DNA of 64,000 nucleotides from Patellaria atrata CBS 101060 (taxonomy: Eukaryota), in contig MU006108.1 in assembly GCA_010093705.1 (NCBI GenBank), positions 62,001 to 126,000 on the forward strand, read 5' to 3'. Both the position numbers and the translations under genes were made by a program. Positions 51,669 to 57,078 of the stretch are shown here, piece by piece. How positions within the stretch are numbered: the stretch's first letter is position 1; each line of letters opens with the position of its first letter. The notes below the pieces were generated by a model. That model had not been told where the DNA came from. It did no database searches and worked only from the letters and a program-made list of their open reading frames with translations.

Positions 51669-53288
51669 TCAGCTCTTTTCATCGCCCCTAAACCGCTCCA
51701 ACAATCCAACATCCCATCCCTGAAATCGTCTCGCTGAGATCGGTAACAACTTCGCACTCTCCCTCAGCGTATCCCTCAATTGCGTTACCACCAGTGCCGG
51801 CAGCGTGAGTTCCTCGACCGACATGCTCTGCGTGTCCATCAGGAGAGCGGTGGGAGCTTCTTTCCTCCCTTCGGTCTGCCAGAAGATTTTCATGGCGCGG
51901 GTGGGATCGGTGCGTTTGGATGACAAGACGGAAGAGCAGATAAGGAGGGAAGGGGTGAAGATCCAAATCTGTGGAGGTTAGGAAGAGGGGGGCAGTCGGA
52001 GTGAGGAGAATTTCTTCATAGCATGGTGTATGAATGGTTGAGTATGGTGGAGGACAGTTACATAGACTTACCAGAAGTGACTCTTTTTCAGCATCATCGT
52101 CCCTATCGCTGCTATCGACGCGAAATTTGCGCACACCTTGGCTCTCGACGAGCGTTATGAACAGCGCGGAGAGCCATTTCTGCATACTGTAGTACTGGCG
52201 TCGTGGCTTTGCAAAAGCGATGGTGAGACTCCATTTATAGAGCTTGTAGCCCTCTGCACGAGTATCGAAAAGTCCAAGGACGGAATTACAAGATGAGCAC
52301 AGGAGCAGTGGATCATGGTTATGATTATGGGAGGAAGAAGACTTTTGTATTATCTGCTCCTATCTAAATTAGCGCATGAACGCTCATTTTACGGTATGTA
52401 TCTCTAATTTCCCCGGCCAAAGTAACAACTTGAACAGAGGCCTGAGGAATAAAGGAGACGATGACTAGACCCGCTAAGTCACCCGTCCGAAGAGGGTAGC
52501 AGAGCAGGTCTGGTCTATTTACTCTCGGGCGAGTGTATCGGGTAATTGAAGTCACCAGGCCGACCGGAGACCGGTCGGGACTTACTCCCTTCTTCAGGCC
52601 CATGAAAAGCATTACAGTATAGGGTAATAGATCATATGTAGATGGCACAAGGCTGACCTACTTTGACACCGCTACAGTCCTCGTGGTCGAGTAGCAGATA
52701 CGAAAGATCAACAAGGCCAGTACCTTGCGAAGCAGTCAGTTCGGTAGAAGCAGCATAGCCCTTTTCCTGACCAACTGTGTGGTGCTGATGTTCGTGTGGT
52801 TTATGACAGTGCCAAAAGTCCATCATCTCGGCCCAGTTTTCGCTGGGCAGATCTTTCCACTGTCCGATAGCATCAGATTTGACGAGTTCATTGCTACATT
52901 CTAGACACGAAATCCTTTTCGCATCGTCCATTGAGGTTGCGGACCAAGGGACTGCATTTGCTCCCTCATCTGCGCTTGCTTCCCCGTACTGGAGTAACCC
53001 AGCGGCCTTCTCTTCAAGCTGTAGTCGTAGGGTTAGTTCCTTGGAAGGGGTAGCTGGAAGTGTTAGTGAGGCAGAACCACCGCCAGATATCTTGGTCGGT
53101 AGGCGTATGCTTGCAAATTTGCCTTCATGGGTGAGCGTAATCCATTCACCGTCGGTTGACAGCGAAGCTTTAGTTTCTTCGTTTGACTCTGTACGTAAAG
53201 AAGCGAAGAAGGATATCGTACGTATGTTTAGGAGAAGCTCAGCGTAAAGTTCTATGTGTGAATCCGCGTCGGATTCGGACTCTCCCAT
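51669..53288 (-). CDS. HECT-like E2-binding protein (UBE3D/Ipa1 family, 404 aa)
   Basis: Exons 53288-52662, 52359-52072, 51968-51669; LYAELLLNIR, CLEC, WKDLPSENWAEMMDFWHCHKP, CSSC, IWIFTP, RAMKIFW. Confidence 0.88.
52394..52604 (-). ncRNA. Intron-encoded box H/ACA guide RNA; predicted targets U2 snRNA Psi42 and 25S rRNA Psi966 (S. cerevisiae numbering)
   Basis: Layout hairpin / H box AGAGUA (52525-52520) / extra UUCG hairpin / hairpin / ACA (52399-52397); both pockets sit 14 nt from their boxes and pair with the target flanks; ends approximate. Confidence 0.8.
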
Positions 53289-54232: not shown

Positions 54233-57078
54233 ATGAAAAGGATAAAACTAGCCAGCGCTTGGATGAGCGTCGTCGCGATAGGGATCCTATGGCTGCCAAC
54301 GGTACGGAATAAGATAGTGAATTCGGGAGAGCGTAGTTTGACATATTGCAGGTCCGAGGTCGTTTTCCACAGCGCATCATTCCAGATGATCACGATGCGA
54401 AAGGTATTTTTCATGCGAACCACAATGCGAAAGGAATATTTCACGTCAGGGACGCCAACGGCGAATTGCCCGCTGTAGTTCCTGAAGTAGCTCCTGAGTA
54501 TGCAATCCCATTATACGCCCACGACGTAACCAACGATTCTAACATTCAGAAAAGAGGACCAATGTCCATCGATGCAGTCCAAGTCGAGACCAGTCCCGCG
54601 TTGGGGCCCAGTATGACAACGGATGTTGAGCATATTCCTTCCCCAGAAGTATCTCAGCCCGTGGAAACAACGTCGTGCAGTACCGAAATAGCCGTGATAA
54701 CCCATGAACCATCGATCGTTGTAGAATCCGTCACTCAAGAACTTCCTATGACGTCCCATGTACCACCAACAGAACATGTCGTATCAGTTAACTCGCATCC
54801 CGTGGAATCAACATCGTATAGCAGCGAATCTATCGTGGCAGAAGTACCCATGGAGTCTCATGTACCGCCTCCGGAACATGTCATACCTGTTGAGAGCATC
54901 TCATCTCCCGAACACACTCCCGAAGGCGAAACCACGATGTACCTTTGGCCTGAAATAACTGGCGAGACCGAAGCCCTGTTGCCGATCTATACATCAATCA
55001 TTGAGCACCCTCCCATTGAAGAGCAGTCGATCCCTATTGTCTCTGAACCCATGCAGACTCACCCGATAGCGGTAGTCTCTACAGCACATATAATGCAGCC
55101 TCACGAGACGACAATCGCTGATATTGCAGTATCAACGCATCCGGTTGTAGTAGAAACGGTAGTGCATCCACCACCTCCCCATGAGACTCTAGTTGTAGAG
55201 GTTACCCCGGTAGCCTCATCACCACCTCCACATGAGGTAGCACCTGTCCAGGAAACAATGCCGGTCCATGAGACTATGCCGCCGGTGCATATGACGATGC
55301 CAGTCCAAGAGATCATGCCAGTTCATGAGACGATACTGCCGGTCCAAGAGACAATGCCACCGATTCATGAGACGATGATGCCTCCGGTCCACGAGACGAT
55401 GCCGCCGCCAGAACTCCACGAAACGATGCCACCGCTTCAAGAGACGATGCCACCAGTAGTCCATGAGACGATGCCACCAGTAGTCCATGAGACGATGCCA
55501 CCAGTAGTCCATGAGACGATGCCACCAGTAGTCCANNNNNNNNNNNNNNNNNNNNNNNNNNNNNNNNNNNNNNNNNNNNNNNNNNNNNNNNNNNNNNNNN
55601 NNNNNNNNNNNNNNNNNNNNNNNNNNNNNNNNNNNNNNNNNNNNNNNNNNNNNNNNNNNNNNNNNNNNNNNNNNNNNNNNNNNNNNNNNNNNNNNNNNNN
55701 NNNNNNNNNNNNNNNNNNNNNNNNNNNNNNNNNNNNNNNNNNNNNNNNNNNNNNNNNNNNNNNNNNNNNNGAGACGATGCCACCAGTAGTCCATGAGACG
55801 ATGCCACCAGTAGTCCATGAGACGATGCCACCAGTAGTCCATGAGACGATGCCACCAGTAGTCCATGAGACGATGCCAGTACATGAGACAATCCCAATTG
55901 CGGTTGCTCCTCCTCAAGAGCACACTCCGGAAATGCCTATTCATACCCCTCCCGTACATCCACCGATGCAAACTTTGGTTATTGTTGAATCAGTTCCCGT
56001 CATGGTCCATCCTATCCCTAGCGTAGTGGTTGTTTCTACCCCGATGCATGAAATTCCAATGCAGACTCACGTCACTACAGTCAAAGTACCCGTTGTATCT
56101 CATCCACCTGCTGAAAACGTTCATATTCCGGCAGAGTCACCGGAACCTGAGGTGCCCGTCCAAGGAGTCACCGTAACACATCACACAACGCAAAGAGTAA
56201 CGCAATTAATCACAATCACCGAGACAATGAACGGTCTGGTTTCAGTTTACACTGTAAGTGGATAATTCCTGAAAAGCTTACATCATGTGTTGAATTATAT
56301 TAACGTACTATAGTCCGATCTCGCGATACTTTCCTCTCAGACTTTTGCCCTCCAACCTCCCGTTGAAACTGTTCCGGTTCTTATGTCGATGCCACTGCCT
56401 TCAATTATTGCTCCCTCGCTCATACCTTTACCATCTCCCTCAGTGGAAGCATTCTGCAAATGTCACTGCGTGTGCCCTCCCGGCTCTTTTGACCCAAATT
56501 TAATTCAATATGCACCGCAGCACCCCATGGTGGATGCTCCCTCAGCTTATTTACCTGAAATAAGCTCGAACGTGGTCTCATCAGCGCTTCCAACCCTAAC
56601 CACTCTATTAACGGCTCCGTCCAGCTCCGTGATTGCGGAAGAAATAACGACTTCCATATTCGAACTCACTCTCGACGTTAGCGGGGCAGAATCATCTCCA
56701 ATATCGACCTCTGCTCCCGAGAGCGTAGCGGATGCATCTTTCGCGTTATCAGCACCAGCAACCACCGAATCTCCGCCCAGTGAGACCACGATCGAGCCCA
56801 CGACATCCTCTGAGATCCCTGCAACAACAGAAGTACCTGCGAACACATCAACTGCTCCCCCCTCAACAGTTGCTGAGTCTACCACCGAGGAAGCCCCACC
56901 GGAAGTGACAACGGCGATACCGGATGAAGCTCTACAGCAAGCTTCTTCACTTCTCGCCGCGGCGAGTAGCATCGGCAACGAGCTACCGTTTGACATCAAT
57001 ACATTCCAGTTGCTACCGAGCGTCGCCGTCGGTCTTGGACCCGGAAGATTGAGGAGAAGGGTGATGAGACCAACATGA
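54233..57078 (+). CDS. Secreted Pro/Val/His/Glu/Thr/Met-rich repeat protein with ETMPPVVH array and CxCxCxC motif
   Basis: Exons 54233-54301, 54352-56253 (contains the N gap), 56314-57078; signal-peptide-like N-terminus, KR site (IQKR), FCKCHCVCP, S/T-rich C-terminal part. Confidence 0.85.
55441..55889 (+). repeat. Coding 24-bp minisatellite GAGACGATGCCACCAGTAGTCCAT spanning the assembly gap 55536-55770
   Basis: About 4 perfect units on each side of the gap; degenerate units extend back to about 55230. Confidence 0.95.

Follow-up and report, generated by a model that had tools for sequence, protein, structure and literature searches.

Within a 64,000-nucleotide (nt) stretch of the genome of Patellaria atrata CBS 101060, a member of the Dothideomycetes (contig MU006108.1, positions 62,001 to 126,000; hereafter the window), we identified a predicted box H/ACA RNA with a mature length of about 210 nt (52604-52394, minus strand), hosted by the first intron of a UBE3D/Ipa1-like gene. 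As judged from its sequence and from comparison with related introns, this RNA is very probably a pseudouridine (psi) guide whose 5' pocket is of the U2-psi42 type, directed at the U2 small nuclear RNA (snRNA). The hairpin that carries this pocket, hairpin 1 (HP1), is the conserved core of an RNA family found in the same UBE3D/Ipa1-like intron of many filamentous ascomycetes. A second pocket, in the 3' hairpin, fits a site in 25S ribosomal RNA (rRNA) of the psi960/psi940 type, and the chances that it is a working guide for that site appear to us evenly balanced. Unless otherwise stated, all features of the window described below lie on the minus strand.

Anatomy of the intronic RNA and predicted pairing with U2

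The intron spans 52661-52360 (302 nt), as had been proposed in an earlier sequence-only reading of this DNA, and was confirmed by its splice motifs (donor GUAGGU at 52661 and acceptor AG at 52361-52360) and by tblastn of P0002, a public P. atrata protein of 404 amino acids. The RNA within it was compared with the rules of the H/ACA class as given by PMC2780460, namely an H box of the form ANANNA and an ACA located 3 nt from the 3' end. HP1 (52601-52527), recognized in the sequence, in the minimum free energy (MFE) fold and in the RNAalifold consensus, comprises a GGGC/GCCC basal stem read in the sequence (52601-52598 and 52530-52527), a pocket, and an upper stem made of GGG/CCC, AAGUC/GACUU and CCGACCGG/CCGGUCGG, the same stem being recovered by the MFE fold. 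Its pocket strands are AAGAA (52594-52590), complementary to U2 U44-U48 (UUCUU), and GAUAC (52539-52535), complementary to U2 G37-C41 (GUAUC). The H box AGAGUA (52525-52520), read in the sequence, fits ANANNA and lies 14 nt past the HP1 upper stem.

The 3' hairpin (52459-52400), identified from the folds, is built of a GUCUC/GAGAU basal stem, a pocket and a GGCC/GGCC upper stem. Its 5' pocket strand is UCCU (52448-52445), complementary to 25S AGGA, and its 3' pocket strand is GGGAAAUU (52413-52406), of which the GGGAAA part is complementary to 25S UUUCCC. An ACA box read in the sequence (52399-52397) follows 14 nt past the upper stem, so that in both hairpins the distance between upper stem and box falls within the class rule that places the target uridine 14-16 nt before H or ACA. 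Both ends of the RNA are predicted from the three-hairpin fold, the 3' end being placed by the rule that ACA stands 3 nt from the RNA end (PMC2780460). The hairpin-hinge-hairpin-tail fold of the class is present in the MFE and consensus folds, except that an extra hairpin (middle hairpin, 52515-52462 in the MFE fold), to which the sequence-only reading gave no emphasis, separates the hinge from the 3' hairpin; in the window its apical stem is UACCC/GGGUG.

In its anatomy the intronic RNA thus obeys the sequence rules of the class, with two pocket hairpins, ANANNA, ACA and 14-nt spacings. All hairpin, pocket, H box and ACA elements listed in the sequence-only reading lie at the positions it had given, and its proposal of an intron-hosted box H/ACA RNA is supported by this anatomy together with the covariation and the covariance model described below. 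When a 221-nt stretch covering the element was folded, three hairpins were obtained with an MFE of -80.2 kcal/mol (z = -2.86), and 1 of 200 shuffled sequences folded equally well. It is the conservation of the RNA, and not its fold alone, that shows it to be other than a chance structure.

Yeast U2 is printed from nt 31 to 78 in the excerpt of PMC4712673 and from nt 1 to 50 in the excerpt of PMC3177201. Counted from A31, it reads G37-U38-A39-U40-C41, U42, G43 and U44-U45-C46-U47-U48, which bears out the string GUAUC-U42-G-UUCUU that had been proposed as the partner of the 5' pocket. Against this yeast sequence GAUAC pairs with positions 37-41 and AAGAA with positions 44-48, giving 5 + 5 Watson-Crick pairs and leaving U42 and G43 unpaired atop the pocket; the G preceding AAGAA could add one G-U pair with U49. 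The 10 base pairs (bp) exceed the minimum of 8 bp described for guide-target pairing (PMC6049503, excerpt).

Conservation of hairpin 1 in orthologous introns

To survey orthologous introns, 33 orthologues of the host protein were aligned and metagenome contigs were scanned. The best 80 of 213 stretches encoding relatives of the host protein were taken as loci L001-L080, and all locus counts given here refer to these. Host-protein identity across the loci ranged from 31 to 65%. When the loci were matched to named proteins, some proved Alternaria-like (92-98%) and some Friedmanniomyces-like (91-99%), and most were far from any named protein compared. In searches with the two exons (tblastn), the matches were separated at this junction by 298-439 nt wherever both exons were present, with L068 as the sole exception: this 1128-nt contig encodes a host orthologue with an exon gap of only 48 nt and has neither the long intron nor the RNA.

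A blastn search with the window intron recovered the same 22-29 nt, corresponding to the 3' pocket strand, basal stem and H box, in about a dozen loci and at the intron position. The HP1 pattern was detected by motif search in 57 of 72 distinct sequences, the remainder being five contigs that end at most 155 nt from exon 1, one intron-less sequence, and variants in which, by eye, GAGAA replaces AAGAA and GAUAU or UAUAC replaces GAUAC.

The HP1 alignment included 46 distinct sequences (the window and 45 relatives); L051, which runs off its contig, and L057 and L076, where the anchor was misplaced, are not among them. AAGAA and GAUA are invariant in all 46 sequences and the C after GAUA is kept in at least 90% of them, while the flanking stems vary. 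The H box begins with an A that never varies, at least 90% of the sequences also have A at its third position, and the segment from pocket to H box is free of gaps in every row, which fixes the 14-nt spacing. RNAalifold predicted exactly the two helices bordering an open HP1 pocket, with compensatory changes at 8 of 11 pairs. These include GGGCG/CGCCC, GGGUG/CACCC, GGGCA/UGCCC and GGGUA/UACCC in the basal stem, and GGAG/CUCC, GGCG/CGUC and AGAG/CUCU above the pocket. Overall, 89.9% of HP1 cells are paired vs. 79.5% in column shuffles (reached by 0 of 500), and pairing falls to 37-48% once the partners are slid by 1-3 columns. It should be noted that relatedness among the sequences may inflate the column-shuffle control, a weakness from which the slide control is free.

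A covariance model trained on the 45 relatives, with the window excluded, produced one match when run on both strands of the window (52518-52604, minus strand, 28.2 bits, E = 1.8e-6). Applied to the 80 loci, the model matched 67 (E ≤ 0.01), once per locus and always on the strand of the host gene; most of these are training members or identical to one, and six are independent (L033, L040, L051, L052, L057, and L079). Searches of Rfam identified no family at this place. At gathering thresholds there were no matches across the whole window, and therefore no U2 or rRNA inside it; a scan of positions 52300-52720 with 4227 families and E up to 10 returned two chance matches (E of 6.6 and 9); and 20 orthologous loci searched with E up to 1 gave no match save one weak C/D match elsewhere. 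A motif scan for U2 likewise found 0 matches in the 80 loci and the window, and a scan of viral contigs for the 15-nt U2 motif gave 117 stretches, none of them U2-like by context.

The sequence-only reading had suggested Infernal/Rfam searches and an alignment of orthologous introns as checks. Rfam provided no family match, and it was the covariance model built from relatives that recovered the window; the alignment showed a conserved HP1 pocket with covarying stems and an invariant ACA, and a 25S-type pocket in only 1 of 48 distinct 3' hairpins.

Some observations count against the family assignment and the U2 target. The two sequencing runs in which the locus was found each cover it with one long identical contig, so that both are DNA and probably the source of the assembly; the pairing was judged against yeast U2 and not against that of P. 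atrata; some relatives have AnAUUG at the H-box columns, departing from ANANNA; and 13 of the 80 loci were left unmatched by the covariance model, of which four are truncated contigs, one is L068 with its missing intron, and eight form a variant group. With regard to the target, the U2 region around U42 is near-universally conserved, and for this reason we infer that these fungi share the same U2 sequence.

The variant group consists of L042, L060, L061, L064, L067, L071, L072, and L076, which were missed at an E of 0.01 and are partly Friedmanniomyces-like by host protein. Their upper stem differs and reads AACCGGCC...GGCCGCAAGG, and their 3' pocket strands are GAUAU or UAUAC.

The 3' hairpin, known guides and competing explanations

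The 3' hairpin was aligned in 35 of the 46 distinct sequences, near-duplicates being omitted. The ACA is invariant in all 35, the helix above the pocket shows both-sided changes at 5 of 5 pairs, and the upper stem together with the middle apical stem is 88.1% paired vs. 77.8% in shuffles (0 of 500). By its constant position, invariant ACA and covarying helix, the 3' hairpin is homologous across relatives. Its pocket differs: the 5' pocket strand of relatives is mostly (G)UUUCA(C), TTTCA being present in 26 of the 48 distinct 3' hairpins, and their 3' pocket strand reads GAUAA, GGUUUA, GAUUA or GAUAG at the aligned columns. Since the aligned pocket columns of relatives read otherwise in a hairpin that is itself homologous, the 3' pocket of the window is, as far as the alignment tells, lineage-specific. 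Several H/ACA families with one lineage-specific pocket are described in the excerpt of a fungal snoRNA (small nucleolar RNA) survey (PMC5824354).

The pocket of the relatives fits only partly with N. crassa 26S 5'-CUAUC-psi2313-AGCGAA-3' and with 18S after psi1509 (AAUCUUG). Stem IIa of U2 was also considered as a possible target. Many relatives (L004, L009-L016, L018, L022, L028, L030, and others) have a 3' hairpin whose apical loop follows the pattern ACCC-(U/C)(C/U/G)AGA-nnCUUGGGA, which is absent from that of the window. The UGAG/UCAG-like tetranucleotide in this loop is one that we take to be reminiscent of the Cajal body (CAB) box of scaRNAs, the small RNAs specific to Cajal bodies.

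Across the 35 aligned sequences the middle hairpin keeps its apical stem (UACCC/GGGU type); 92.9% of the cells are paired, and one pair shows a C:G to U:A exchange. At the apex the loci have a UA(C/U)CCUC...G(A/G)UGGGUU-type motif (columns 67-99 of alignment A3). The middle hairpin was considered as a third guide and rejected, as no H- or ACA-like box is found 14-16 nt after it.

With respect to the 25S fit, the sequence 5'-UUUCCC-psi940-CAGGAUA-3' of N. crassa 26S rRNA has been shown paired with the strands UAUUCAC and GGGGAAA of Nc ACA6 (PMC2780460, supplement). GGGAAA and UCCU of the window pair with UUUCCC and AGGA of this string and leave U and C unpaired, which gives 10 checkable pairs, above the 8-bp minimum. 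The homologous guides listed for psi940 are snR8 and ACA56 (PMC2780460, Table 2), and in yeast psi960 is assigned to snR8 and psi966 to snR43 (PMC5699541). Neighboring sites of N. crassa and yeast correspond as 984 to 1004, 1037 to 1056, and 1105 to 1124, and because these offsets are 19-20, the matched uridine is the yeast psi960 site and not psi966. The pocket had previously been assigned to U966 and snR43; its pairing with UUUCCC-U-CAGGAUA holds, and the site itself becomes N. crassa psi940, that is, yeast psi960 of snR8. In a 20-nt motif scan for large subunit (LSU) rRNA, an odd LSU-like stretch with the psi960-type site was seen at 2800-2960 of L198, a 2960-nt contig filed as viral; no Rfam family reaches threshold in L198, which was not used.

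A close known counterpart in function is snR81 of S. cerevisiae, which guides U2-psi42 by its 5' pocket and 25S U1051 by its 3' pocket (PMC6049503, excerpt), the latter site being listed as psi1052 in the table of PMC5699541. A combined U2 and 25S guide is thus not new in kind. The sequence-only reading had attributed its two sites in yeast to separate RNAs, snR81 and snR43, and had called for a search as to whether their combination was catalogued; one RNA serving both a spliceosomal and a ribosomal pseudouridine is already known in snR81, with U2-psi42 and a 25S site (PMC6049503, excerpt). The P. atrata RNA shares with snR81 the geometry of the U2-psi42 5' pocket and the pairing of a spliceosomal with, here probably, a 25S target. 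It differs in that the U2 pairing is 7 + 7 in snR81 vs. 5 + 5 (plus one G-U) here (PMC6049503, excerpt), and in that the 25S site is psi1052 in snR81 and probably the psi960 equivalent in P. atrata. In addition, the P. atrata RNA lies in an intron, carries an additional middle hairpin and has no Rfam match, snR81 being compared by description only. Finally, snR81 (HACA_26) is called genus-specific to Saccharomyces in the excerpt of the fungal snoRNA survey (PMC5824354).

Nc ACA6 of N. crassa resembles the 3' hairpin in that its strands UAUUCAC and GGGGAAA are similar to UAUUCCU and GGGGAAAUU of the window and address the same target string, UUUCCC-psi-CAGGAUA. Unlike the window, Nc ACA6 carries the psi940 pocket in its H-box (5') hairpin, is an intergenic RNA of 165 nt, and guides 26S-psi1105 with its other hairpin; the rest of its sequence is unrelated by eye. 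Because the other hairpin and the gene location differ, the P. atrata RNA is not counted as a member of the snR8/Nc ACA6 family, and the likeness is one of function only. A total of 20 H/ACA RNAs were cloned in N. crassa, where no guide for snRNA pseudouridines was predicted (PMC2780460), and the AAGAA...GAUAC hairpin is absent from all 20 printed sequences.

Other guides act on the same part of U2. A 2017 paper reported the first U2 guide of S. pombe, which acts on positions 43/44; its discovery was prompted by the lack of an annotated U2 guide (PMC5473140, excerpt). Like the RNA described here, this pugU2-43/44 is a fungal guide of the H/ACA class, aimed at U2's branch-point recognition region; unlike it, pugU2-43/44 targets 43/44 by its 3' pocket (ACAGAUAC and UGAAAA) and is non-intronic, lying downstream of RPC10 (PMC5473140, excerpt). 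Vertebrate U2 scaRNAs (SCARNA8 and others) also direct H/ACA pockets at the same recognition region of U2 (PMC5473140, excerpt), and differ in being Cajal-body RNAs with CAB boxes. In an A. fumigatus study no H/ACA RNA was found experimentally. Among the papers listed on snR81, on UBE3D snoRNAs and on Aspergillus H/ACA RNAs with U2, no title or abstract describes this intronic RNA.

Taken as a whole, the data are best explained by a box H/ACA guide of about 210 nt encoded in the intron, which would be freed after splicing and then trimmed back to the borders of a Cbf5-Nop10-Nhp2-Gar1 particle, both steps being proposed by analogy with known intronic snoRNA biogenesis. The open HP1 pocket would pair with UUCUU and GUAUC of U2 in the same geometry that yeast snR81 uses to form U2-psi42, and the faster-evolving 3' hairpin would probably have acquired a lineage-specific second function at the 25S psi960/psi940 site in P. 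atrata.

This second function is the part of the explanation most open to challenge, as the RNA might be a single-target U2 guide whose 3' hairpin does no more in P. atrata than supply the other half of the H/ACA particle, the 25S fit being a coincidence aided by ancestry in a closed pocket. We regard this possibility as a serious one, although somewhat doubtful. It would account for the presence of GGGAAA in the 3' half of just 1 of 48 distinct 3' hairpins, that of the window itself, and for the MFE fold, in which the 3' pocket strands pair together (UUCCUC with GGGGAA) and close the pocket in the free RNA. Many relatives already have GGGAUAA at the homologous 3' strand, so that few changes yield GGGGAAA and the match to UUUCCC is in part an inheritance and not independent. 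Further points against a 25S function are that the pairing was judged against a 14-nt string of N. crassa 26S and not against P. atrata 25S, and that 10 of the 12 claimed pairs are checkable against this printed target, the two outer pairs of the 8-bp strand being presumed from upstream letters beyond it. The relatives in which the 25S pocket was looked for are not close ones, the best host identity among the loci being 65%. What speaks for a genuine 25S target is the canonical geometry of the fit, with two unpaired nt and 14 nt to the ACA, a pairing above the 8-bp minimum (PMC6049503, excerpt), and the prediction that N. crassa modifies the same site with near-identical pocket strands. In addition, a rough estimate gives a 4 + 8 fit odds of about 4e-6 at a fixed register, or about 1e-3 to 1e-2 after about a thousand choices of site and register.

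The RNA could instead be a direct orthologue of yeast snR81 that moved into or out of the intron and had its 3' pocket retargeted from 25S psi1052, and this would agree with the shared function and geometry of the 5' pocket and with the order of targets, the 5' hairpin being matched to U2 and the 3' hairpin, in P. atrata, to 25S (PMC6049503, excerpt). We consider such orthology unlikely given the Rfam results for the window region and the 20 orthologous loci, which do not go beyond chance or weak matches, the reported restriction of snR81 to Saccharomyces (PMC5824354, excerpt), and the shorter U2 pairing (PMC6049503, excerpt). Far less probable is that there is no RNA gene at all and that the hairpins represent intron structure by which the host gene is spliced or regulated. 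The element does always occur in the same intron and near the branch point, but a structure of this kind would need neither an invariant unpaired AAGAA/GAUAC within covarying stems, nor a constant 14-nt distance to an H box, nor an ACA that never varies.

Returning to the H/ACA guide, we tentatively propose, as a broader scenario that we hold to be possible and rather less than probable, an ancient, as yet uncatalogued H/ACA family of filamentous ascomycetes that became locked in the UBE3D/Ipa1-like intron and supplies U2-psi42 outside budding yeast, with an invariant U2 hairpin joined to a rapidly evolving second hairpin retargeted to 25S psi960 in the Patellaria lineage and the conserved middle hairpin as a new functional module, for example for localization or processing. 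If true, a conserved intronic guide would account for the formation of U2-psi42 in filamentous ascomycetes. The approximately 50 distinct sequences would also constitute a natural series with one pocket frozen and the other drifting, useful for the study of gain and loss of guide targets. The fixed residence in a gene linked to mRNA 3'-end formation is a curiosity from which co-regulation may or may not follow.

Host gene and neighboring sequence

Exon 1 of the host gene (53288-52662, amino acids 1-209) matches the Pfam domain HECT_2 (PF09814, E = 4.9e-57), and its product is 100% identical to P0002. Exon 2 (52359-52075, approximately amino acids 210-304) matches HECT_2 profile positions 198-289 and was also delimited by tblastn of P0002; its 3' end is placed by the 100% match to P0002, which picks up again at 51968-51971. 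The second intron is about 103 nt long by the same search, vs. 302 nt for the first. Both exons thus match HECT_2, the domain of the UBE3D/Ipa1 family, which literature abstracts tie to CPSF73/Ysh1, in agreement with the link between the host family and this nuclease made in the sequence-only reading.

Approximately 25 nt downstream of the ACA box, the intron contains CUAAU (52372-52368), a putative branch point read in the sequence, and CUAAC/CUGAC-type motifs resembling it are found downstream of the ACA box in many relatives. The first AG past CUAAU belongs to a UUUAG that ends at 52364 (window positions 52364-52368) and is skipped as acceptor; the acceptor is AG at 52361-52360 because the reading frame of P0002 requires it.

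Elsewhere in the window, a long open reading frame on the plus strand (approximately 54337-56265) is rich in ETMPPVVH-type repeats and is broken where a stretch of N marks an assembly gap within the tandem repeat.

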